Notes: a model not told the origin generated them from the letters alone. Counted from the first letter of the stretch, positions 8,389 to 20,065 are shown. The stretch is DNA of 64,000 bases from Acidobacterium sp. (GCA_003131625.1 PKVY01000103.1:25365-89364), one strand, 5' to 3'. A program made the numbers and translations.

Positions 8389-10791
8389 TTACTGCGAGGC
8401 CTGCTGGGGGATGCTGTGAATTGTAGTCAGCAGAATGCCCCAGTTGGTAGGGACCTGGCCGGGATTTCCGCGGGTCCCGCTGCTGGTATTGCTCAGCAGT
8501 TGTTCCAGCGGCGATTGCTCGCCGCCGCGCGAGCGCGAGACGCCCTCGAAGTTGAGCACAAAAGGATCGGACAACGGCTGCGCGGTGCTCAGGAGAACGA
8601 AGGTATCCGTGCCGAAAGGCGCTCCGATTTTGAGGGCAGGCGCGCCCGGGATCAGAAACTGATTGCCGGTATCGGATTCGTTGGGAAACTGGTTTCCCGA
8701 ATTTCCCCTGGGATACAGGACCGTGCCCTGACCATGGCAATCGATGTCGAGGACGTAGACCCAGCGCTTCTCGGTGACCTGGCCGTTTGCCCGCAAGGCC
8801 ATTCTCAGCTGATCGCCTTCGTGCAGCACCTGACCGGGGGCGAGCGGCGATCCGCCGGAATACGGAACCAGAGCCAGCGAATAGTAGTACCCACGAGAAG
8901 CGTCGGCGGGACTGTTAGCCATCTGGAGCCAGCCATGCACTTTGGCCAGCAGCGACGCATAGCGATTCAACGCGGCCGCGCCTTTTTCCATCGCGCTCAC
9001 GTCGGGCATCGCGACCCAGTCGCTGCGGACGGGATATTGCGATGTCGCAGAGCAGCCAGGAGTGAGATGGTTGGGGTTGGGTGGGGGCGGACCGGCGGCG
9101 AGCTCATTCTTGTGGAACCACGCCCACGCTGGCCCACTGGGGGTGAGAACGCCGGTCAACGCGTATTCCGCACTTGCGAGCGTCGCAACTGTTTGCACAG
9201 CGCTGTTGGGATCGGGCGGAAGAAGCTGCGCAACAAGTTCACGCGATGGCGGGAGGTTGACCCAAAGCTTTGCGCCGGCGGGAATCTTTTTTCGCAGGGC
9301 CGCTGCTGTGAGGGTGGCGCCCAGCGGTGCGGGCAAAGGCGCGCCGGCCTGTTGCAGCGTCCAGTTTGTGCCATCCCAACTGAGGATGTGGGTCCATTGT
9401 TCGGCGGCCGGATCGGAGACGGAGACCATGCCGGCAGCCTGAATTTGCGCGGCGGCTGCGAGGATGTCCGCCTGCGCCAGGGTTGCCGGCCAGTGCCAGA
9501 CGCTCAGCGGCGCCGACTGCGCGGGGCTCCACTTCGTCATCTCGAATATGTCGCCGGAGCTCACCTTAGCGCCCTGAGGACTGACGACTTCGGCTACCGA
9601 GCGGGCGATGCCCTCGAGTGCGGTGACGCGCAACTGGACTTTCTGGCCGTCGCTGTTGGGGAGCGTCGCGGTGAATTCGCTGCCAACGCCGACGCCGGAG
9701 ACGCGGCCGACGTCGAGCCACACTGCGCCGCTATTGCTGGTTCCGAGCGCGGCGGTGCGAATCTTGTCGGAGGCTGTCGCCGCTCCACCGAAGAGTGGCT
9801 GCTCGCGACGCTGAGCTGTGGCGTCGAGGTCCGGGTCCTCGTCGGGAACGTCTTCGTTTTGGATCACGGCTCTGACTCGCTGATAGACGACGGCGGCTGG
9901 CGCATCGGCGGGCAGAACCTGCAGCGCCTCGACCAGCGCAGCGGTGAAAGCACCGTGGGGCTCCGTCGGCGGGACGGTGTCGGGAGTCTCCTTGGCACTC
10001 TGGTCCTGCTGGACGGCGGAAAGCACCAGCGCAGGGTTATCCTTCCGTTCCGTGGGCGCGGGTGGCGGATCGCCGCTGGGGAGCAGGACCGGGGCTTCGG
10101 CGACGTCGCGTGGGTCGAAGGGCAGGTCCCGCTGGCGATACTTTGGCTCGATGCCGCGACTAATACCGCCGCTGTGGCAATTGTCGAGGATCACGGTGAG
10201 GTGAATTCCCTTGTCCAGCGCGGCGTTGAAGATGTGGGTCATTTCACGATCGCGAACGTCGTAGCCGCCTTTGTACGCGTCGGACGGAACTAAGGTGCTG
10301 TCGGCAGGCACGTACTTGCCGTTGACCAGCACAGTGAGCTTGGTTCCTTTGCTGTTGATGCGGAGCGATCCGTGGCTGGCGGCATAGAAGACGACGGTGT
10401 CACCGGAGTGGGGAACGTCGACGAGGTACTTCTGCATCGCCGCGAGAATACCGTCGCGCGTGGTCTGCCCGGCGGGCAGGATCGTCTCGCTAGCGCCGGG
10501 ATGAGGCGGCGCCGGATTGGTGAGCAGCACCACCTGGTTCGATGGGAACCCAAACTTGGGGCTGGTGAGAACGTCCGCCATGGACTGCGCGTCGTTGACG
10601 GCGCCGTCGAGATTCTCGAAATAGCCCAGTTCGCAGCGGCCGTAAGTGCAGCCATCGGGATGCTGTGCCCTGGTGCCGGCGGGTTCGTAGGTGTTAATGC
10701 CGATCAGGAGCGCACGCTTCGTCTGCGCTGGTCCCGGTGTTCCGCACAGCACGCAGAGCCAGACGAAGGCAGCAGCAAAGGTGGACTTCAT
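8389..10791 (-). CDS. exported caspase-family (peptidase C14) protein with DUF4384-like C-terminal domain
   Basis: Signal peptide 'FVWLCVLCGTPGPAQT'. Also 'RALLIGINTY', catalytic 'FYAASHGS' and 'VILDNCHSGG'. The C-terminal 'VYVLDIDCHGQGTVLYP...FVLLST' is DUF4384-like. GGAG lies 7 nt before the ATG. Confidence 0.8.
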   Translation of the reverse strand: MKSTFAAAFVWLCVLCGTPGPAQTKRALLIGINTYEPAGTRAQHPDGCTYGRCELGYFENLDGAVNDAQSMADVLTSPKFGFPSNQVVLLTNPAPPHPGASETILPAGQTTRDGILAAMQKYLVDVPHSGDTVVFYAASHGSLRINSKGTKLTVLVNGKYVPADSTLVPSDAYKGGYDVRDREMTHIFNAALDKGIHLTVILDNCHSGGISRGIEPKYRQRDLPFDPRDVAEAPVLLPSGDPPPAPTERKDNPALVLSAVQQDQSAKETPDTVPPTEPHGAFTAALVEALQVLPADAPAAVVYQRVRAVIQNEDVPDEDPDLDATAQRREQPLFGGAATASDKIRTAALGTSNSGAVWLDVGRVSGVGVGSEFTATLPNSDGQKVQLRVTALEGIARSVAEVVSPQGAKVSSGDIFEMTKWSPAQSAPLSVWHWPATLAQADILAAAAQIQAAGMVSVSDPAAEQWTHILSWDGTNWTLQQAGAPLPAPLGATLTAAALRKKIPAGAKLWVNLPPSRELVAQLLPPDPNSAVQTVATLASAEYALTGVLTPSGPAWAWFHKNELAAGPPPPNPNHLTPGCSATSQYPVRSDWVAMPDVSAMEKGAAALNRYASLLAKVHGWLQMANSPADASRGYYYSLALVPYSGGSPLAPGQVLHEGDQLRMALRANGQVTEKRWVYVLDIDCHGQGTVLYPRGNSGNQFPNESDTGNQFLIPGAPALKIGAPFGTDTFVLLSTAQPLSDPFVLNFEGVSRSRGGEQSPLEQLLSNTSSGTRGNPGQVPTNWGILLTTIHSIPQQASQ

Positions 10792-10958: not shown

Positions 10959-11933
10959 GTGGGTTCGATTTCTGAAATTCACATTGTCGATTCTCATACG
11001 GCGGGCGAGCCGACCCGCGTCATCGTCGCCGGAGGACCGGAGCTGGGCAATGGGCCGTTCGCGGAGCGCCTGCGCCGGTTTGCCGCCGAGCACGACGATT
11101 TTCGCTCGGCCGTGGTGAATGAACCGCGCGGTTCCGATGTGCTGGTGGGGGCCCTGCTGGTGGAGCCAGTGGATGCGGCGTGCATTGCCGGCGTCATTTT
11201 CTTCAACAACGTCGGGTATCTGGGCATGTGCGGCCACGGCGCGATTGGTTTGGTGACGACGCTCGCGCATCTCGGCCGTGTCGAGCCGGGCGAGCACAGA
11301 ATTGAAACGCCGGTGGGCGTGGTGCGTGCGATGCTGCACAACGATGGGCGCGTAACGGTGGAGAACGTCCCAAGCTATCGCTGCCGGAAGGGGATCGCGG
11401 TTGAAGTTGCGGGATTCGGCGAGGTGACCGGCGACGTGGCGTGGGGCGGGAACTGGTTTTTCCTGACGGAGGACGCGCCCATGCCCCTGACGCTGGAGAA
11501 TCGTGAGGCGCTGACGGGCTTCGCGATGGCGGTCAAGGCGGCGCTGAACGCGCAGGAGATCACGGGGGCCGACGGGAGTGAGATCGACCATATTGAGGTC
11601 TTCTCCCCATCGACCGTGTCCGGAAACGACAGCAGAAATTTTGTCCTGTGCCCAGGTAACGCGTACGACCGCTCGCCTTGCGGAACCGGTACGAGCGCGA
11701 AGCTGGCCTGCCTTGCGGCAGACGGCAAACTCGCGCAGGGCCAGGTGTGGCGGCAGGAGGGAATCCTGGGGACGGTCTTTGAAGGCAGCTATCGGATCGG
11801 GGACGGCCCGCAGACCCAGGTAATTCCCAGCATCACCGGCTCGGCGTACATCACGGGGGAAGGCCGGCTGTTGTTACAGGAGGATGACCCGTTCCGCGTG
11901 GGGATTCAGGCGCCGAAGTCGGCGAGGTCATGA
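10959..11933 (+). CDS. proline racemase family protein, 4-hydroxyproline 2-epimerase-like
   Basis: '[14 protein letters not shown]' plus both catalytic Cys contexts, 'LGMCGHG' and '[12 protein letters not shown]'. GTG start. Confidence 0.8.
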
Positions 11934-12459
11934 CTCCGTAAGCTCAGCATTTCTGCAATCGCGGAAGCGCTGCGACGAATGCCCCGGTCTACGGGTGACT
12001 CGCCAGAAAAACGCCCGTGCGATGAAACGCCGAGGCCGGCCCGCGCACTATGCTCCCAGAGAAAGTCGTCGTGCCAACCAGCATCGGCGAATCCCTAACC
12101 GCGGTACCCATCTCAGACCCACGAGGATGGGGACCGCAATCGGAGCGTGCGATGGCGCGGCTGACACTGTGGAACTTCCCCGGATCGCTGATTCACCTGT
12201 ATTCCTCTTTCTGCCCTGAGTTCGCTCTTCCCCTGTCCCTCTGGCTGAGTTGCGGCTGGATCGGACTCCGCCTCCACGTGCAGGCTGAGCTGGCCGCAGC
12301 CGGCCTGCTGTGGAGAGTGATGCCCGAAGAGTACAGGTCGACGATATGAGTCTCGAATTGGTTCGCAACAACGCAGGCCTGTCGCGTGCTCCCGGTGCGC
12401 AGAGGCACGTCCGCCCTCCGTCGGTCGATCACAAGCTCAATGCGCGCCCGACGCCGATG

Positions 12460-13080
12460 CTATACTCGCGTCCTCCCGGGTTTGCGAGGACTTCTTTGCA
12501 GTTTTTTGCGTTCGATGCAGGCTATATCGAAGGTCTCTGCGCAGGGGACCCTCGCACGCAGGAGCACTTTGTCGGTTATTTCACCCAGCTGCTCCACCTG
12601 AAACTCCGCTCGCGGCTCAAATCCTCGCAGGCCATCGAAGATGTGCGCCAGGAGACCTTTGTCCGCGTGCTGGCGACCCTGCGCAAAGAGAACGGACTGC
12701 GCCAGCCGGAACGCTTTGGCGCGTTCGTCAACACGGTCTGCAACAACGTGCTCTTCGAGCACTACCGCGCGTCCTCGCGCAGCGAATCCCTCGATGAGGA
12801 CGACCGGCCGGAGCTGCCGGCAACCGGAGCCAACGCGCACGACATCGCCGCGACGCGACAGCTTGGGGAAAAGGTGAGGGAGATTCTGGCCGAGATGCCG
12901 GCGAAGGATCGGTCGCTGCTGAAGGCGATTTTTCTGGACGAAAAAGATCGGGATGAGGTTTGCCGCGAGTTCGGTGTGGATGGGGAATATCTTCGGGTCC
13001 TGCTGTTCCGGGCCAAGAAGAACTTCAAGGCCGAGTACGTGAAACGAATGGGCGGAGATTCCAATGGTGCGATTCGCTGA
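12460..13080 (+). CDS. ECF-type RNA polymerase sigma-70 factor
   Basis: Region 2 'IEDVRQETFVRVL...FGAFVNTVCNNVLFEHYR' and region 4 'LPAKDRSLLKAIFLDEKDRDEVCREFGV'. Start is uncertain: in-frame alternatives at 12310 (GTG) and 12346 (ATG). Confidence 0.75.
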   Translation, partial: LYSRPPGFARTSLQFFAFDAGYIEGLCAGDPRTQEHFVGYFTQLLHLKLRSRLKSSQAIEDVRQETFVRVLATLRKENGLRQPERFGAFVNTVCNNVLFEHYRASSRSESLDEDDRPELPATGANAHDIAATRQLGEKVREILAEMPAKDRSLLKAIFLDEKDRDEVCREFGVDGEYLRVLLFRAKKNFKAEYVKRMGGDSNGAIR

Positions 13081-13136
13081 AACGTTTCACCGAGCCGAGT
13101 CACTACTAGTCAGAGCAGGAATTGGAGTCCGCGCCC

Positions 13137-13817
13137 ATGAATCATAGCGAAGCAGTTCAGATGATGGCGACCGAGCGGTACCTCCTGGGAGAGTTGTCCC
13201 CCGAATTGCGGGAGGCTTTTGAAGAGCACTACTTTGACTGTCAGGAGTGCGCGCTCGACCTTCGCGCCGAGGCGGCGTTTGTTGACGCGGCCAAAGTGCA
13301 GTTGCCGAACATGGCGACCTCGCCGGCAGCTTCTCCTGCGCCGAGGAAGCGCGAGTGGTTCGCGTGGTTGCGCCCGGCCATGGCCGTTCCCGCCTTCGCC
13401 CTGCTGCTCATCGTGATCGGATACCAGAACATCGCCACGATTCCGTCACTGCGCTCGGCGGCGTCCAGTCCGCGGCTGGCGCCCTGGGCGACGCTTCACG
13501 CTGGAACTCGAGCCGGTGCTCACCTGCCGGTCGTGGCGGACCGCAAATCCGGCGCGGTGCTCCTCATCGATGTTCCCAACGACGGCGCTTACGCTTCGTT
13601 TGCCTTCGATCTGGAGGATCCGCAGGGGAAAAAGTTCTGGTCCCAGACCATCAGCGCCCCCTCGGAAACGGGCGGCGCGGCCGGCACGCTCTCTCTTCTG
13701 ATCCCAGGAATGGGCTTGCAGCCAGGCTCGTATACGCTTACTATCTCGGGCATCACCCCTCAGGGCAGCCGGACCCAGGTGGACCGGCGGATCCTTGATG
13801 TTCGCTTTGACGAGTAG
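13137..13817 (+). CDS. anti-sigma factor (zf-HC2 N-terminus, one TM helix, extracytoplasmic C-terminal domain)
   Basis: 'LLGELSPELREAFEEHYFDCQECALDL' is the zf-HC2 pattern. TM helix 'AMAVPAFALLLIVIGY'. Lies 56 nt after the sigma gene. Confidence 0.65.
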   Translation: MNHSEAVQMMATERYLLGELSPELREAFEEHYFDCQECALDLRAEAAFVDAAKVQLPNMATSPAASPAPRKREWFAWLRPAMAVPAFALLLIVIGYQNIATIPSLRSAASSPRLAPWATLHAGTRAGAHLPVVADRKSGAVLLIDVPNDGAYASFAFDLEDPQGKKFWSQTISAPSETGGAAGTLSLLIPGMGLQPGSYTLTISGITPQGSRTQVDRRILDVRFDE

Positions 13818-13852
13818 TACCCACTCCCCCCGGAAAGTGAGCAAGTACGGCC

Positions 13853-14704
13853 ATGCCTGGCGATAAACCCCACCCGGAACACGAATATCACGCGGAAGCG
13901 CACGCCCTTTCGGGCCATCTGCACCATCCTGTTGAGCAGCCCATCAAGCCCCAGGCCTTCGTCCGCCTTGAGAAATATGGTGGCTATCTCTCGGAGCGGG
14001 CTCGCGATTATCGTCTGGAGGGTGTTTTCTCTTTCCGGCATTCCTATACGCAGGTGGCCGGCAACCGCGACCAAAAGAAGGACCACGGCTTCAACACGCT
14101 GGCGACTGCGGTCATCGAAGGCTTCAACGTCCTCGACGTGGTTACTGCGGACCGCATCGTGTCGCAAATTTCCACCGACCATCCCCTCGTGGGCTATGTG
14201 CCCACAGTCACTTTTCTCGGCACGCGCTTTGAAAACCTGCGCATCGCCGGCAAAGAAGTGGATGTCGACCTGGACCTCGATTTCCTGGGACCAAAACCAA
14301 CGAAGGACGCTCCGTATCTCAAGGACGCCGGATTCCGCGCGCGCGTCGAGAAGCAATACGCGGGCATCCGGGGACAGAACCTTCCCCCCGCGATCCTCGG
14401 ACGCTACAATCAACTCCCATCGGATTCCAAACCTGAGGCATCTCTCGAATGCTCGCTGGTCAGCAAGGCGGAGCCATCTCGTTTTGGGCGGCCTTGCGGC
14501 CACGTTATCGAAATTCCGGGCTTTGGGCGGATCCTTCTGGCCGTGTTGCGTATCGAGCACTGGGATCCCAACAAAAAGACGGGCATCCCGATGCGGACCA
14601 AAATCAGCCTGACCATGCTGGAGATCGAGATGGGCTGCATCGGGCACGGGAACGCAGCGGCGGGGAACACCATCGTCAACGGAGCTGGAAAGGGCGGAGG
14701 ATAG
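13853..14704 (+). CDS. hypothetical protein (283 aa), no recognisable domain
   Basis: Long ORF 35 nt after the anti-sigma gene with coding-like composition. 7 His in the first 25 residues. Ends in 'NGAGKGGG'. No signal peptide or TM helix seen. Confidence 0.6.
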   Translation: MPGDKPHPEHEYHAEAHALSGHLHHPVEQPIKPQAFVRLEKYGGYLSERARDYRLEGVFSFRHSYTQVAGNRDQKKDHGFNTLATAVIEGFNVLDVVTADRIVSQISTDHPLVGYVPTVTFLGTRFENLRIAGKEVDVDLDLDFLGPKPTKDAPYLKDAGFRARVEKQYAGIRGQNLPPAILGRYNQLPSDSKPEASLECSLVSKAEPSRFGRPCGHVIEIPGFGRILLAVLRIEHWDPNKKTGIPMRTKISLTMLEIEMGCIGHGNAAAGNTIVNGAGKGGG

Positions 14705-14793
14705 TCGGGATTGTCGCTTCCCTTGTTGTAACCGCATCATGCATAGGTGACCGTGCGCTCTCCGTTGAAGAGGAATATGACCGTACGACGCTG

Positions 14794-17163
14794 ATGTTTC
14801 AACACGGTGAGCTAGCCGCTAGCCAGGAAGTTGCCGGCGAGTTAGCAGACCGATACCACGCCACGAGTCCGGAGTGGTTCGTAAAGTTCAGAATCCTTGA
14901 GGCTCAGTCGGCCTCGTGGCGCGGGTTGAGCCAGCAGGTCCTTGATATCCTCCCCGATGACCTCCCATCCTCAACCGACCGCGACCTTCAAGTACGCAGA
15001 TTGTCCCTCCTCGCCGGGGCAAATACTTACCTGCACAAATATGCAGCCGCAAGACAATACCTCGCGGAAGCCGATGCATTCTGTCCCTCGATGGGTCGCG
15101 CTGTTTGCAGCCACGTCCTCGATGCCCATTGGACCCTTGCCATTGAGCGAGGCCAATACGAGCAAGCTTCACATTTTGGTCTACAGGAACTGTCCATTGC
15201 TCGCGAATTCAGACAGCCATTTGACGAGGCGAGAGCGTTGGCCAATCTCGCGAACACTAACCTATATGTGGAGCACTTTGACGAAACCATCGACTGGCTG
15301 AATGCCTCGAATCGGATTGCGGCGTCCCTGGGCGCTGACGACATCCTTCTCACCAACATCGGCAACCTGGGTTGGGCTTATTACAGTCTCGGTGACCGAG
15401 TTCGCGCCTTAGCCTTGCTCCAGGATGCAGAGCGAAGAGCAGTGGCTCTGGGGGATGTGCGTGAGGCTATCATCTGGCTCACGACCACCGCCTATGTTTT
15501 CCAGGATGGCGGCGAATGGTTGCGGGCTGAAGACTCATATCGCCGAGCCCTCGCTGCCGCAAACGAAATCAACAGCAGCGAAGACATCATTAACTCCCTG
15601 GAGAGCCTGGCCCACATTTCCATCGAGCTCAATCAACTCAGCGACGCCGACAGCTACCTCCGCCAACTTGACCCCCTGATCCGCGCTAATGGCAACCGTC
15701 TCGACGCGCTCGACGTCCTGCTGGCGCAGGGGCGCATCGCCGCGGCGCGGCGTCAGGATCAGCAGGCGGAGGCGCTCTTTCGCCAGGTCGAGGCCGATCC
15801 GGCCAGCCAGATCACCATGCGCCTCGACGCGGAGCACGAGCTGGCCCGGCTCTTCGAACAACAAGGCCGCATCGACGACGCGAAGAAGATGTACGCGACC
15901 GCGTTGGCCACCTTTGAGTCGGCGCGGGCGAAGATCAAAAACGAAGATTCGAAACTTCCTTACTTCGCGAACGCCACGCCTATCTACGACGATTACATTC
16001 GTCTGCTGATATCGCAGGGCAAAGAAGAAGCAGCGCTCGCCGCCGCCGACCAAAGCCGCGCCCGCACCCTCGAGCAGGGGCTTGGGGTGACGGTCGGGAG
16101 CAAATCCATCCAGGCGGCCTCTCTGCATCCCGGAGCGATCGCGTCCCGAGCCGACGCGACGCTGCTCTTTTACTGGCTGGGAGAAAACAAGTCCTGGCTC
16201 TGGGCCATCACGCGGAAGAAGACCACCGTCTTCCCCCTGCCCGCCAAAGCCGAGATCACGCGCATCGTCGAACGCTACCGCCAGGCGCTGCTGGGACCGG
16301 AAGATCCGCTCACCTCCGCCAACCCAGACGGCCTCGCGCTCTATCGCATCCTCGTCGCACCGGCAAAGAGCGCGCTGCCACCCAATGCGAAGGTGGTCAT
16401 CCTCTGCGACGGCGTTCTCAGCCAACTCAACTTCGAAACCCTTCTGACCGATACGACCAAGCCTCACTACTGGATCGAAGACGCGGACATCGTCTCCGCG
16501 CCGTCGCTGCTGATGCTGGCCGCCTCGAAGCCTTCGCACGACACCAGCCGCAAACTCCTCCTGCTGGGCGACGCCGTTTCCCCGGGCCCCGACTATCCCG
16601 AACTACCCAACGCCTCCGTCGAGATGCAACAAATCCGCCGGCATTTTCAGCCCCAGGACGAAACCGTCTACGCGCGGCAGCAGGCGAGCGCCGCCTCGTA
16701 CCTGGATAGCGCGCCGCAGCGCTATTCCTACATCGATTTCGTCGCGCACGGTGTGGCCAGCCGCACCGATCCGCTCGATTCGGCCATCATCCTCTCGCGC
16801 ACTTCCGGCGGAGAGGATTCGTTTAAACTCTATGCGCGCGACATCATGCTGCACCCCATCGACGCGCGTCTGGTCACCATTGCAGCCTGTTATGGCGGCG
16901 GGACGCGTACCTATGCGGGCGAAGGTCTGGTCGGACTCTCGTGGGCGTTCCTGCGCGCCGGCGCGCACAACGTGATCGGCGCGCTCTGGGAGGTCAGCGA
17001 CGAATCCTCGCCGCGCCTGATGGACGCCCTCTACAGCGGGCTCGAAAAGGGTCTGCCGCCGAGCGCCGCTCTGCGCCAGGCGAAGCTCTCCCTGCTGCAT
17101 GCCCCAGGGGATTTTCGCAGGCCCTTTTTCTGGGCCTCCTTCCAGCTGTACACCGGTATGTAG
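14794..17163 (+). CDS. TPR-repeat protein with C-terminal CHAT (caspase-fold) protease domain
   Basis: TPR-like helical repeats, then 'YIDFVAHGVAS' (His) and 'LVTIAACYGGG...GALWEVSD' (Cys). The frame is open from 14449, but the first non-overlapping canonical start is ATG 14794 (see finding). Confidence 0.75.
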   Translation: MFQHGELAASQEVAGELADRYHATSPEWFVKFRILEAQSASWRGLSQQVLDILPDDLPSSTDRDLQVRRLSLLAGANTYLHKYAAARQYLAEADAFCPSMGRAVCSHVLDAHWTLAIERGQYEQASHFGLQELSIAREFRQPFDEARALANLANTNLYVEHFDETIDWLNASNRIAASLGADDILLTNIGNLGWAYYSLGDRVRALALLQDAERRAVALGDVREAIIWLTTTAYVFQDGGEWLRAEDSYRRALAAANEINSSEDIINSLESLAHISIELNQLSDADSYLRQLDPLIRANGNRLDALDVLLAQGRIAAARRQDQQAEALFRQVEADPASQITMRLDAEHELARLFEQQGRIDDAKKMYATALATFESARAKIKNEDSKLPYFANATPIYDDYIRLLISQGKEEAALAAADQSRARTLEQGLGVTVGSKSIQAASLHPGAIASRADATLLFYWLGENKSWLWAITRKKTTVFPLPAKAEITRIVERYRQALLGPEDPLTSANPDGLALYRILVAPAKSALPPNAKVVILCDGVLSQLNFETLLTDTTKPHYWIEDADIVSAPSLLMLAASKPSHDTSRKLLLLGDAVSPGPDYPELPNASVEMQQIRRHFQPQDETVYARQQASAASYLDSAPQRYSYIDFVAHGVASRTDPLDSAIILSRTSGGEDSFKLYARDIMLHPIDARLVTIAACYGGGTRTYAGEGLVGLSWAFLRAGAHNVIGALWEVSDESSPRLMDALYSGLEKGLPPSAALRQAKLSLLHAPGDFRRPFFWASFQLYTGM

Positions 17164-17336
17164 CGTCATTCATCCGCGCCCATTGCGGGAGCGAATCCCT
17201 TCTCCGTGAATTTCTCAAGATGTCTGATACGAAAGTGCCAGGCGCAGCACTACTCCCCAGTGCGACGTGAGGCGCGGTCCCCATCCCGCTCGACCCTTCG
17301 GCCCCTCAACGCCAAAAGTCGCCGCGAAGGAGCAGC

Positions 17337-18464
17337 ATGTCTTCAACCAACAAATTTGTGCTTCGCGTACCTCTCGATGCATCGCGGGTTCCGGACTTCC
17401 TGCCCGACCGCTCCGTGAGCGTACTCGCCTGGCACAAGCAGGGCGTTCCCCAGCAACGTCTGGCGACCTTCAATCCGCAGGGCCAAGGCTCCGCCTCGTT
17501 TGAATTTCAGCAGCCGCCGGAATCCCTGCGTGTCGCGCTGGGACCGGAGACTGCTACGCCCGCCGACCTCCAGCGACTGCAGACCGTTTCTGTCGCCGTA
17601 CCAACTTCCTCCTGGCAAACAGCGTCCGAAGTTTCGCTCCCCGCTATTCAAATTTCCTCGTATCACTGGTGGTGGTGGCAGCACTGGCGCCAGACCTTCA
17701 AACTCACCGGCCGGGTTCTAACTTCGCGCGGCGTTCCCATCACCGGCGCAACTGTTTCCGCATTCGACATCGACGCATGGTGGTGGTGGACCGCGCAGGA
17801 GCAGGTGGGACGCGCGACCACCGACGACGATGGTTGCTTCGCCATCGACTTCACCCGCGGTTGCGGCTGGTGGCCGTGGTGGTGGTGGGTCACCCGTGAT
17901 TGGCAGGCCAATGCGGTGCTTGTCGACCAGGTCACCGCGTTCGTCCGCCAGTACCCCAGGTTGGCCGCGCTCGGGCCGGTAACCCCCATGCCCAGTCTCG
18001 ACGTCTTCCAGTCGCTGCTCGCCTCGGGTCCCCGGCCGATGCCGTCCAAATTCTCCACCAGCGTCTTCCAGCTCGGCCAGACCCTTGCCAACACTGCCAT
18101 CGATCCCGCCTCGCTCGAAAGTCTGCGCGAGCGGCTCATTGAAATCCTGCCCAAAAACTTTCCGCTTCCCATCTGGCCCTGGTCCGCGTGGTCTCCCTGG
18201 GAAGACTGCGGCGCCAACGTCCTGTTCAAAGTGACGGACACCTGCGCCGGTGAAACCAGGGTCCTGCTGAGCGAAACGGTGAGCGAGGCTCGCTGGGATA
18301 TTCCCTCGTCACTCGATGTCATGCTGACGACGCGCGAAGGCCGGTTCCGAGAGAAAACCCCGGGATGGACGCTGGTGGATTATCTCTTTCCGGCGAATCG
18401 TTCCGGCGCGTGGGGCAGCAGGGCCGGCAAAGAGATGGCAGCGCCACCGGGCAGACTGGCGTAA
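17337..18464 (+). CDS. hypothetical protein with three Trp clusters around a CarboxypepD_reg-like beta-sandwich segment
   Basis: GAAGGAG RBS before the ATG. Contains 'HWWWWQHW', 'AWWWWT' and 'GWWPWWWWVTRDW'. 'LTGRVLTSRGVPITGATV...TDDDGCFAIDF' resembles a carboxypeptidase-regulatory-like domain. Confidence 0.6.
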   Translation: MSSTNKFVLRVPLDASRVPDFLPDRSVSVLAWHKQGVPQQRLATFNPQGQGSASFEFQQPPESLRVALGPETATPADLQRLQTVSVAVPTSSWQTASEVSLPAIQISSYHWWWWQHWRQTFKLTGRVLTSRGVPITGATVSAFDIDAWWWWTAQEQVGRATTDDDGCFAIDFTRGCGWWPWWWWVTRDWQANAVLVDQVTAFVRQYPRLAALGPVTPMPSLDVFQSLLASGPRPMPSKFSTSVFQLGQTLANTAIDPASLESLRERLIEILPKNFPLPIWPWSAWSPWEDCGANVLFKVTDTCAGETRVLLSETVSEARWDIPSSLDVMLTTREGRFREKTPGWTLVDYLFPANRSGAWGSRAGKEMAAPPGRLA

Positions 18465-18551
18465 GTGGAAAGGATGAATTCAGGGCCATTTTTCAATGAC
18501 TGATCCCCCGGACTGCACGCCAGCCGGGAAATTCAATTGAACAGGAGTTTT

Positions 18552-18797
18552 ATGCATATCTTGACGGCAATATTTGACTTCCTTTTCGGATGCCGCCATG
18601 CGGACCTGAGCCGCGTGTTCACCATCGGCGGCCAGACCTATCGGGTGTGCTGCAATTGCGGCACAAGGTTCAGTTACTCGCTCTCCCGCATGCGCCTGGG
18701 GGCGCGATGTGCCGAGACGCCGGTTAGCCTTCCCATTTTCTCCAGGCTGGGACGCCGGCCCATCGCCGTTCTCTCCGAAGATTTCCAGATGGAATAG
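18552..18797 (+). CDS. small Cys-rich (zinc-ribbon-like) protein with hydrophobic N-terminus
   Basis: AGGAG lies 5 nt before ATG 18552. Sequence 'ILTAIFDFLFGCRH...YRVCCNCGTRFSY'. Confidence 0.45.
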   Translation: MHILTAIFDFLFGCRHADLSRVFTIGGQTYRVCCNCGTRFSYSLSRMRLGARCAETPVSLPIFSRLGRRPIAVLSEDFQME

Positions 18798-18835
18798 GAC
18801 TTGACTCGGCGAGGAGTTACGCGCGGAGCTCGTTC

Positions 18836-20065
18836 TCAGTTACAGGCCGTTGCGGAAGATTCCGCCTGAGAAAGACGGAATTCGTCGATGTAACTCCGCC
18901 ACGCATCCACTTTCTCTGACAGCCCCAAACTGTCGAGATAGCCAGCATCCAACGGGATGTCGCCGGCCTCCAGTGCGTCGCCGGATGCAATCGACAGGGC
19001 GTCTGCGCAGTGAACCGCGGTTAAGGGTGAAAAGCGCGCCTCGATGGCCTCCGATGGACGATGGTGAAACGCCACAGCGTGCACCAGGGAAATAGGTAGT
19101 CCCCACATGCTCATCAGATAGGCGCCTAACTGCGCGTGAGAACAGCCCAGAGCCTCGATCTCGAGGGCTTCGATGGAACGCGCGCAGCCCTCCGCATTCT
19201 TCAGAACTTCGCCGTACTCCTTGGGCTTCTCGGCGAGAAGAATGATCTTGCCGGCGTCGTGGAGCAGACCCGCCGCAAAGCACTCTTCGGCGAGTGACTT
19301 ATCGCCGGTTTCGTCCACCGCGATGCGCTGCGCGACGGAGGCGACGCAGACGCTGTGATCCCACAAGGCGGGAAGGGAACTGGCGACTGCGGATTTCCTG
19401 TCGAACTGAGAGAAGACGTGGATGGACAGGGTCAGGGTGCGGACCGTCTCGATCCCGATCAGCGAAACCGCCTGGCGCAGACTCGATACGCGGCCGTGCA
19501 CCCCGATGAATGCGGAGTTCGCCAGCTGAAGAATCTTCGACGCCATGCCAATGTCGCGCGCGATGATCTGCTCAATTTGCCCGAGCGATGCGGTTTCCGA
19601 GCGCAGGGCCACCGTCAGTTCGTTGTAGATGGCCGGCAAGCTGGGGATCGAGCGCAGTCGGGCAATGGCGGCGGCGATGGCCGGGTTCGTGACCAGATCG
19701 CGCGAGGCAAAGGCCTGGTTGAGACGCAGCTTGAGCTCCCGGATATCGCACGGCTTCGCCAGGTACTGATGCGCGGGGGCGATGGAGCGAAGCACGGCCT
19801 CTTTTTCCGACTGCCCGGACAAGATGATTCTGACGACCTGCGGGTAGCGATCCTTGATGCAATCCAGCAGCAGAGCGCCGTCCATGGAGGGCATGCGCAT
19901 GTCGGTAATCACCGCATCGAAGCGTTCCTTTTCGAGCGCCTGCAGGGCGGCGTAAGCGCCGGGAGCGAAGTGCATGTCCCATTCCTGGCGCATGTCGTGC
20001 AGAGCTCGCCGGAGCCCGGCGAGGACCAGGGCGTCGTCGTCGACGAAGAGCAGGCGTTTCAGCAT
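18836..20065 (-). CDS. response regulator, receiver + HDOD domain
   Basis: REC 'LLFVDDD...VITDMRMPSMDG...LAKP', then HDOD-like 'LPSLPAIYNEL...IIARDIGMASKILQLANSAF'. The start overlaps the kinase stop (ATGCTGA). Confidence 0.8.
   Translation of the reverse strand: MLKRLLFVDDDALVLAGLRRALHDMRQEWDMHFAPGAYAALQALEKERFDAVITDMRMPSMDGALLLDCIKDRYPQVVRIILSGQSEKEAVLRSIAPAHQYLAKPCDIRELKLRLNQAFASRDLVTNPAIAAAIARLRSIPSLPAIYNELTVALRSETASLGQIEQIIARDIGMASKILQLANSAFIGVHGRVSSLRQAVSLIGIETVRTLTLSIHVFSQFDRKSAVASSLPALWDHSVCVASVAQRIAVDETGDKSLAEECFAAGLLHDAGKIILLAEKPKEYGEVLKNAEGCARSIEALEIEALGCSHAQLGAYLMSMWGLPISLVHAVAFHHRPSEAIEARFSPLTAVHCADALSIASGDALEAGDIPLDAGYLDSLGLSEKVDAWRSYIDEFRLSQAESSATACN

Follow-up and report, generated by a model that had tools for sequence, protein, structure and literature searches.

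The window analysed here, a stretch of 64,000 nucleotides (nt) of Acidobacterium DNA, harbours a cassette of co-directional genes for a sigma factor of the extracytoplasmic function (ECF) type, a zf-HC2 anti-sigma factor, a protein of 283 amino acids (aa) belonging to the family DUF8256, and a TPR-CHAT caspase-like protease. This cassette is a real, widely conserved and uncharacterised system of soil Acidobacteria (Acidobacteriaceae), and a new form of protease-controlled ECF signalling. The initial annotation of the window had proposed a coupled, undescribed system, which agrees with the strict conservation of a four-gene core and with the lack of any mention of DUF8256 in the literature searched. 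It had counted five genes, the fifth encoding a protein with tryptophan (Trp) clusters; four of them are conserved in order, while the Trp-cluster gene is not part of the core and a sixth, small open reading frame (ORF) had been overlooked. All five co-directional ORFs reappear in a six-frame ORF list of the window, and the spacings of 56, 35 and 173 nt given between them are correct, whereas the gap of 'at most 89 nt' before the protease gene is probably an overlap of 256 nt instead.

The evidence for a common unit comes from gene order. When one genome of each GTDB species was scanned, 507 of them held relatives, and the window proteins were mapped onto the best 80 of the loci. Wherever the contig reaches, these 80 loci carry the genes for sigma factor, anti-sigma factor, DUF8256 and TPR-CHAT protein in this order and on the same strand, and the same four-gene arrangement surrounds DUF8256 representatives of far lower similarity (E about 1e-43 to 1e-63). 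Seeding a metagenome scan with a different DUF8256 branch yielded about 75 further cassettes, referred to as subfamily 2, whose DUF8256 proteins have about 310-335 aa and which retain the order wherever the contig extends. The order around CHAT homologues is thus kept well beyond this genome, in a total of about 160 loci from two diverged subfamilies, a co-occurrence far beyond chance. Few bacterial groups are as abundant in soil as the Acidobacteriaceae, whose signalling is almost entirely uncharacterised; represented by 507 species genomes and some 1,900 protein clusters, the cassette ranks among their best-conserved ECF modules. A PADLOC search with the five cassette proteins gave no meaningful defence-system match, and no Rfam family was found across positions 11800-18900. 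The features of the cassette are collected in the table.

Features of the cassette in the 64,000-nt window
Feature	Position	Strand	Evidence
P1, putative sigma-dependent promoter, TGAAACG-N16-CACTAT	12023..12051	+	Upstream of small ORF and sigma gene; position conserved in relatives
Small ORF, 65 aa, probable small membrane protein	12152..12349	+	Conserved hydrophobic motif CPEFxLPLSxWLxxGWxGL
Putative extended -10 promoter element TGCTATACT, housekeeping-sigma type	12458..12466	+	Nucleotide-level conservation, about 79 loci
ECF sigma factor, 194 aa, TTG start	12496..13080	+	TIGR02937 above cutoff; conserved GGAG/AGGA and TTG/GTG start
P2, second copy of the motif; its TGA is the sigma stop codon	13078..13106	+	Precedes anti-sigma, DUF8256 and CHAT genes
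zf-HC2 (ZAS-type) anti-sigma factor, predicted single-pass	13137..13817	+	Pfam zf-HC2 above cutoff; ATG 13137 preferred over TTG 13122
DUF8256 protein (PF26784), 283 aa, no signal peptide, no fold match	13853..14704	+	Homologue labels, AlphaFold2 model, Foldseek
TPR-CHAT caspase-like protease, 904-aa ORF, probable ATG 14449	14449..17163	+	CHAT E = 6e-46, TPR matches
Predicted hydrophobic export signal of CHAT protein (IVGIVASLVVTASC then IG), lipobox-like TASC	14701..14748	+	Present in every homologue
Predicted catalytic dyad, His 16747-16749 and Cys 16888-16890	16747..16890	+	Conserved in 71/73 homologues
P3, third copy of the motif, TGATACG-N16-CACTAC	17225..17253	+	84 nt upstream of Trp-cluster gene
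Trp-cluster protein, 375 aa, no signal peptide, accessory behind P3	17337..18464	+	About 12/80 loci; AlphaFold2 model

Sigma factor, anti-sigma factor and promoter motif

The first core gene encodes an ECF sigma factor, as originally annotated, its product scoring 48.8 bits against the NCBIfam model TIGR02937 sigma70-ECF (cutoff 42.9). The Pfam matches to Sigma70_r2 (22.7 bits) and r4_2 (22 bits) each lie slightly under their cutoffs, the best NCBIfam equivalogs are all far below theirs, and identity across the loci is 63-96%. The start assigned at 12310 is wrong. The conserved start is the TTG at 12496, which is preceded by AGGA, and both the GGAG/AGGA and the TTG/GTG are conserved across loci. 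The ATG at 12457 was also rejected as a start, since it is part of a nucleotide-conserved, promoter-like element, (A/G)TGCTATACT. The TATACT of this element stays even in loci where the apparent ATG is gone, which argues for an extended -10 of the housekeeping type rather than a start codon. Read in this way, the putative element implies a basal transcription of the sigma gene that would be independent of the sigma factor itself.

The overlooked small ORF sits between P1 and this element, with a GGAG 6 nt upstream of its ATG. Its hydrophobic motif occurs at the same position in diverse loci, and it is related to a 136-aa gene upstream of the sigma gene in locus L002; a Pfam scan of the ORF gave no match. 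A terminator-like hairpin followed by a T-run lies at 12482-12501, overlapping the TTG start of the sigma gene; it may cause attenuation between the small ORF and the sigma gene, or be a chance occurrence. A hairpin in the 5′-untranslated region masking the Shine-Dalgarno sequence of the sigma gene was considered and dropped, as RNAalifold gave no consensus structure.

The second gene is that of a zf-HC2 anti-sigma factor, an identity that had been assigned before and is confirmed by the Pfam score (PF13490, 23.9 bits against a cutoff of 22.2) and by an HxxxCxxC motif present in 81/81 homologues. The motif is followed by one hydrophobic segment (WFAWLRPAMAVPAFALLLIVIGY) and a well-conserved C-terminal tail of about 125 aa that would form a small periplasmic (extracytoplasmic) domain.

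A promoter-like motif was found by aligning the spacers between the CHAT and Trp-cluster genes. Its general form is TGA(A/T)ACG-N16-CAC(T/C)A(T/C), in which a spacer of 17 nt separates a -35 of TGAAAC, a sequence typical of ECF promoters, from a -10 resembling CACTAT. The 64-kb window contains three matches against 0.00 expected, all on the plus strand and all inside the cassette, which they partition (P1 to P3), and allowing one mismatch added no further match in the window. Within subfamily 1, the motif occurs at the junction of the sigma and anti-sigma genes in 63/80 loci, upstream of the sigma gene in 52/74 and 3′ of the CHAT gene in 22/74, and the same positions recur in subfamily 2. The motif probably belongs to this sigma factor, and provides a concrete handle to define its regulon.

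The TPR-CHAT protein and DUF8256

The TPR-CHAT protein was annotated with an intact His/Cys dyad, and both residues are indeed present and conserved in nearly all homologues. Every homologue also possesses a hydrophobic stretch of 13-20 residues, with K/R on its N-terminal side, directly before the conserved start of the TPR region. In 44 loci, referred to as type-S loci, the CHAT gene has its own ATG after an intergenic gap and the stretch is an ordinary signal peptide, while its end forms a canonical lipobox in the loci of distant members and of subfamily 2 (NLAGC then RSA, GLAC then SRR, GLGC then SRP). Several subfamily-1 loci are devoid of the lipobox Cys and have AxA-like ends instead. 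In the window, the stretch starts exactly at the DUF8256 stop codon and reads IVGIVASLVVTASC then IGDR; set against the lipobox criterion [LVI][ASTVI][GAS]C, the window has VTASC, and the N-terminus of the protein is uncertain. These features suggest that the TPR-CHAT protein is exported, as a lipoprotein or as a periplasmic protein. The export signal would thereby place it on the same side of the membrane as the tail of the anti-sigma factor, as is the TPR-CHAT domain of DdvA, discussed below.

The way in which this protein appears to be translated sets a second group of loci apart. In 53 overlapped loci, comprising the window, 29 other subfamily-1 loci and 23 subfamily-2 loci, the start of the hydrophobic stretch coincides with the DUF8256 stop codon, in the -1 frame without exception and at a fixed distance of 86 or 89 nt from the conserved mature region, and there is usually no ATG, GTG or TTG able to start it. 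What all of them share is an in-frame ATG 80-103 codons upstream (14449 in the window), made up of the last base of the codon before the invariant Cys of the DUF8256 motif 'xCSLV' and the TG of the Cys codon. The codon before the Cys ends in A in 53/53 overlapped loci, whether the residue is E, Q, K, T or V, for which the family-wide use of the A-ending codons is 0.44, 0.31, 0.36, 0.12 and 0.09, respectively; it ends in A in 35/44 type-S loci. The -1 frame is free of stops in 53/53 overlapped loci versus 36/44 type-S loci, and in subfamily 1 a GGAG, GAGG or AGGG lies 8-10 nt upstream of the ATG. As an internal control, divergence at four-fold degenerate sites was compared; expressed as the ratio of the last 84 or so DUF8256 codons to the rest of the gene, it is 0.825 in the overlapped loci (column-bootstrap 95% confidence interval 0.72-0.93) and 1.00 in the type-S loci (0.92-1.08).

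Other explanations of this arrangement fare less well. A programmed -1 frameshift fusing DUF8256 to CHAT fits the frame, but canonical X_XXY_YYZ heptamers and A_AAG sites are confined to a minority of loci and show no conservation, and it is not favoured. A near-cognate start (ATT, ATA or CTG) beside the DUF8256 stop would suit the window, where GGAGGA is followed by ATT 14710, but several close relatives lack any near-cognate codon, so the solution is not general. With no conserved frameshift site and no general near-cognate codon, the upstream ATG at 14449 is taken as the probable start. That this ATG is a mere by-product of a Glu-Cys pair is partly true, in that most type-S loci keep it, yet the use of an A-ending codon through E, Q, K, T and V, together with a four-fold-site constraint confined to the overlapped loci, makes the by-product view insufficient. 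The CHAT gene thus probably starts at ATG 14449 and overlaps the DUF8256 gene by 256 nt out of frame, which would add a basic N-terminal extension of about 84 aa ahead of the export signal and make the pair one of the few bacterial candidates for a long out-of-frame overlap maintained by selection.

At the other end of the overlap, most DUF8256 proteins terminate in NG-x-T-(K/R)-P-stop, while the window and its closest relatives have a Gly-rich tail (NGAGKGGG-stop, 14693-14704). A C-terminal Pro before the stop codon is a slow-termination context, and this may be relevant to the translation of the overlapping CHAT frame.

The 283-aa protein itself was described as having no recognised motif, but it is already catalogued. 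A collection of 5.8 billion proteins holds 1,929 homologues; the label PF26784, that is, DUF8256, is attached in precomputed form to all 120 of those listed (54-93% identity) and to the genes called in relatives. Nearly all of the homologues listed have about 280 aa and come from Acidobacteriaceae or Terracidiphilus metagenome-assembled genomes. The Pfam scan of the ORF gave no match, the scanned release being one without the PF26784 model, and NCBIfam returned a weak match to choice_anch_P ('choice-of-anchor P') of 19.8 bits, under the cutoff of 27. None of the homologues compared has a signal peptide, and near-invariant motifs include GGY, YTQVAGN, TADR, FLGTRFENLRIAG, MGCIG and NG.

A confident AlphaFold2 model built from a 56-sequence alignment (predicted local distance difference test (pLDDT) score 85.5, predicted template modelling score 0.87) displays an all-beta make-up of long antiparallel strands, rich in long beta-hairpins, plus two helices. 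Compared by Foldseek with the PDB for a gasdermin or other effector fold, it has no match at E ≤ 1e-3, the best being 4.8e-3 with a template modelling score of about 0.15; there is no significant match in BFVD either, and a profile search against PDB sequences found none. Its weak structural neighbours are membrane beta-barrels. A gasdermin or pore-former fold is accordingly rejected for DUF8256, whose predicted fold is not gasdermin-like and is currently unmatched.

Outside the cassette, DUF8256 also occurs in fusions. An exhaustive search among representatives returned 1,120 DUF8256 proteins at E ≤ 1e-3, among them a few long proteins with an N-terminal DUF8256. The Pfam partners C-terminal to it are CHAT (P0249, P0278 and P0309), a subtilase of family S8 (P0243) and TIR (P0248), and in P0237 it is fused to a region with multiple transmembrane segments; no export signal was found in the long fusion proteins examined. 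The fusions correspond to CHAT beside a gasdermin in L083 (2529-5989), CHAT beside a DUF7379 protein in L090 (464-4610), the subtilase in L086 (6001-9729) and TIR in L084 (4871-7296). The 254-aa gene lying 3 nt downstream of the DUF8256-CHAT gene of L083 (P0249) is labelled Bact_GSDM in the collection and, as a positive control, hits two bacterial gasdermins of known structure, 8sl0 and 7n51, at about 3e-8; in L090 a DUF7379 protein gene follows the fusion, and near the DUF8256-S8 fusion are an integrase and a trypsin-nuclease gene. The TIR fusion is followed by a small overlapping ORF. These loci look like undescribed protease/TIR conflict systems. The presence of a separate gasdermin or DUF7379 gene beside DUF8256-CHAT argues that DUF8256 belongs to the protease arm rather than being the effector, and it recurs as a domain accessory to 'executioner' enzymes in settings that resemble conflict systems. 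DUF8256 thereby acquires a functional context for the first time, beside executioners of the CHAT, subtilase and TIR types, one of which is linked to a gasdermin.

Candidate mechanisms and known systems

The closest parallel to the cassette is DdvA of Myxococcus, an anti-sigma factor fused to a periplasmic TPR-CHAT domain that is proposed to cut its own linker before cleavage by RseP; DdvA-like anti-sigma factors occur only in Myxococcota and one Comamonas species (DdvA paper). Shared with the DdvA/DdvS pair are the ECF sigma factor, an N-terminal zinc-binding anti-sigma domain with a single transmembrane helix (predicted in the cassette), a periplasmic TPR-CHAT with a His/Cys dyad (a location deduced for the cassette protein from its predicted signal) and a proposed regulated proteolysis. 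The two differ in that DdvA is one polypeptide, whereas the TPR-CHAT of the cassette is, in all loci, encoded by a separate gene for a predicted exported protein or lipoprotein, with DUF8256 in between. The cassette anti-sigma factor, moreover, has its own small predicted periplasmic domain, and the cassette includes two further components, the obligate DUF8256 gene and the small ORF for a probable membrane protein. The cassette is further reported without a nearby CBASS or CRISPR island, no cas gene being among the Pfam labels of the called genes in six loci, with no systematic screen of the flanks for cas. Finally, the phylum is another and CHAT sequence homology is not detectable: a phmmer search of the CHAT protein against PDB chains returned TPR proteins only, and the N-terminal domain of DdvA matched at a non-significant E = 0.88. 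With its separate polypeptides, its lack of sequence homology and its extra obligate genes, the cassette lies outside the DdvA family; it most plausibly works like a split DdvA.

Other known systems share single aspects with it. In the Craspase of type III-E CRISPR systems, the TPR-CHAT protein Csx29 cleaves Csx30, the inhibitor of the ECF sigma factor CASP-sigma (PMC10028731). There too, a TPR-CHAT protein is coupled to the release of an ECF-type sigma factor by inhibitor cleavage and the sigma factor autoregulates its locus. Craspase, however, is fully cytoplasmic and activated by RNA-guided Cas7-11, whereas the cassette protease carries a predicted export signal and the inhibitor is a classical membrane zf-HC2 anti-sigma factor. 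Regulated intramembrane proteolysis in its classical form, with RseA/DegS/RseP and RsiW (DdvA paper; PMC10028731), shares with the cassette a single-pass anti-sigma factor (predicted in the cassette) that holds an ECF sigma factor, an autoregulated operon and, in the scheme proposed here, a periplasmic site-1 cut followed by intramembrane cleavage. The classical site-1 enzyme is a PDZ serine protease encoded elsewhere, in contrast to the candidate of the cassette, an in-operon caspase-fold Cys protease with a TPR array. ECF54 of Actinobacteria, with its CHAT, subtilase and carboxypeptidase-domain neighbours and a proposed proteolytic control (PMC8999054; PMC7826278), has in common an ECF sigma factor genomically associated with CHAT-domain proteins; being actinobacterial and having no anti-sigma factor, it differs in phylum and composition, which from the literature makes membership of ECF54 unlikely. 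Bacterial gasdermin operons also place a repeat- or domain-fused caspase-like protease beside a protein of about 250-300 aa, but DUF8256 is not gasdermin-like and in the fused systems is part of the protease rather than the effector. Foldseek and profile tests of DUF8256 and a structure comparison of the Trp-cluster protein disclosed no gasdermin-fold effector beside the cassette protease in the window.

The reading we favour, to which we assign a little short of an even chance, is that the cassette is a proteolytic ECF signalling switch of a 'split' DdvA/DdvS design, with CHAT as the site-1 protease of the anti-sigma factor. The initial annotation had offered the action of CHAT on the anti-sigma factor as one of two readings; it is compatible with all findings and gains from the predicted export signal of the CHAT protein. 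Basal sigma factor made from the extended -10 promoter would be held at the membrane by the anti-sigma factor. A periplasmic cue, probably a protein, would trigger the periplasmic TPR-CHAT protein via its TPR array, and the protease would clip the periplasmic domain of the anti-sigma factor in a site-1-like cut, after which intramembrane and cytoplasmic proteases would complete the breakdown and free the sigma factor. The latter would fire P1, for the small ORF and more sigma factor; P2, for the anti-sigma factor, DUF8256 and CHAT, by which the switch would be reset and re-armed; and P3, for variable outputs, here the Trp-cluster protein. DUF8256 would act as an accessory or regulatory partner of the protease, its gene being translationally entangled with that of CHAT, and not as a gasdermin-like substrate.

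Several points weigh against this scheme. The anti-sigma factor has no predictable cleavage site, and its cleavage by CHAT remains a proposal. A cytoplasmic DUF8256 and an exported protease would be obligate neighbours in different compartments, which a site-1 model leaves unexplained. CHAT bears no sequence similarity to DdvA beyond the domain type in the phmmer search of PDB chains, and the basis on which the promoter motif is given to this sigma factor is limited to position and conservation. The self-cleavage of DdvA is itself unproven, catalytic mutants having no phenotype in the absence of an unidentified signal (DdvA paper). Lying behind P2, CHAT and DUF8256 could equally be outputs of the sigma factor.

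This last point leads to an alternative in which the sigma and anti-sigma factors sense by other means and DUF8256 and the exported TPR-CHAT protein are its main induced products rather than activators, for instance a periplasmic protease for envelope remodelling or for attack on foreign proteins. We consider it unlikely. The anti-sigma, DUF8256 and CHAT genes do lie directly behind P2, but ECF systems normally re-synthesise their pathway components from a sigma-dependent promoter. Genomics alone cannot separate conserved neighbours into regulators and targets (PMC7826278); against this, the co-occurrence of the core is strict and ancient in two subfamilies, while variable outputs (the Trp-cluster, 299-aa and 86-aa proteins) come and go, and in DdvA and Craspase (PMC10028731) there are precedents for TPR-CHAT proteins acting on sigma inhibitors. 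Less probable still is a scheme in which DUF8256 is a sensor that targets either the sigma/anti-sigma complex or the putative tail, basic, cytoplasmic and about 84 aa long, of the CHAT protein, linking a cytoplasmic signal such as infection to the switch. The lack of a signal peptide in DUF8256, its place ahead of TIR, CHAT and S8 domains at the N-terminus of proteins that lack export signals, the neighbourhood of these fusions (a gasdermin or DUF7379 protein adjoining, or an integrase and trypsin-nuclease gene close by) and the evidence for a CHAT start inside the DUF8256 gene, hence for a cytoplasmic tail, all speak for it. Any binding by DUF8256, on the other hand, is hypothetical, the hydrophobic stretch looks cleavable as a signal peptide or at a lipobox, which would remove the tail, and type-S loci, whose CHAT protein has a short signal peptide and no tail, keep DUF8256 nonetheless. 

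The second reading of the initial annotation, that CHAT cleavage activates the 283-aa protein as a toxic effector, gasdermin-like or of another kind, is not supported and very improbable: the layout does resemble protease-plus-effector operons, DUF8256 is rich in long beta-hairpins and its weak structural neighbours are membrane beta-barrels, but the fold comparisons and sequence searches described above produced no significant gasdermin or pore-former match, an export signal is predicted for the protease and not for DUF8256, placing the two in different predicted compartments, a separate gasdermin or DUF7379 gene takes the effector place beside the DUF8256-CHAT fusions, and PADLOC gave no match. 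A more far-reaching proposal, doubtful as we see it, is that DUF8256 and TPR-CHAT are an Acidobacterial descendant of the protease arm of gasdermin-type cell-death systems, rewired to release an ECF sigma factor as its 'effector'. It would be an immune-like pathway sensing phages or competitors across the envelope, with DUF8256 as a new-fold sensor or regulatory domain and the protease obligatorily co-translated through the 256-nt overlap, and it would be present in hundreds of soil species. If, as in the favoured reading, the exported TPR-CHAT protein makes the site-1 cut in the anti-sigma factor, DdvA would cease to be a peculiarity of Myxococcus, and the use of caspase-fold proteases to fire ECF sigma factors would be general. 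Experiments would also be easier with the split genes, protease and substrate being expressible separately.

Accessory and neighbouring genes

In at least 14 loci, the motif 3′ of the CHAT gene precedes variable genes, encoding the Trp-cluster protein or an 86-aa Cys-rich protein. The three W clusters seen earlier in the 375-aa protein are real and invariant in its family, which is small (66 clusters); the protein has a weak CarboxypepD_reg-like Pfam match only. The AlphaFold2 model (pLDDT 82) consists of Ig/transthyretin-like beta-sandwich domains, and structure comparison, including the gasdermin test, finds domain-level similarity to Ig-like pilin and adhesin folds only. Present in few of the mapped loci, the gene is accessory to the core.

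The 86-aa ORF (18537-18797, plus strand) is rich in Cys and His (GCRH...VCCNCG), with a weak TRASH-like match (E = 0.02). In several loci, whether or not the Trp-cluster protein is present, a homologue is encoded downstream of the CHAT-proximal motif, and it is a possible further output gene. In type-S loci, a further motif copy stands before the gene of a conserved 299-aa protein (4854-5929 in L002, with equivalents in L016, L023, L032, L035 and others), situated upstream of the small ORF and the sigma gene; the protein has no Pfam match and no homologue in the window. Minus-strand copies of the motif occur just 3′ of the CHAT gene, pointing back at it, in L002 (11828), L032 (11698), L045 (11619) and L067 (11624), and could serve an antisense transcript or a small convergent gene.

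On the other side of the cassette, 1.5 kb upstream, the minus strand encodes an 800-aa protein (8389-10791) whose N-terminus resembles a signal sequence and which contains a Peptidase_C14 caspase domain (E = 3.6e-15) together with DUF4384. PADLOC matches it as 'caspase' at 4e-18 and assigns it to no defence system. In the map of 80 loci, this caspase gene and a neighbouring proline racemase gene appear only in the closest relatives; the caspase gene, conserved in L004 and L006, is therefore outside the core. A 2.7-kb contig (L003, PLDF01000078.1) encodes proteins 99-100% identical to the DUF8256/CHAT part of the window and is labelled 'Bryobacterales bacterium palsa_243', while the other relatives are all Acidobacteriaceae, which suggests that this short contig was mis-binned.

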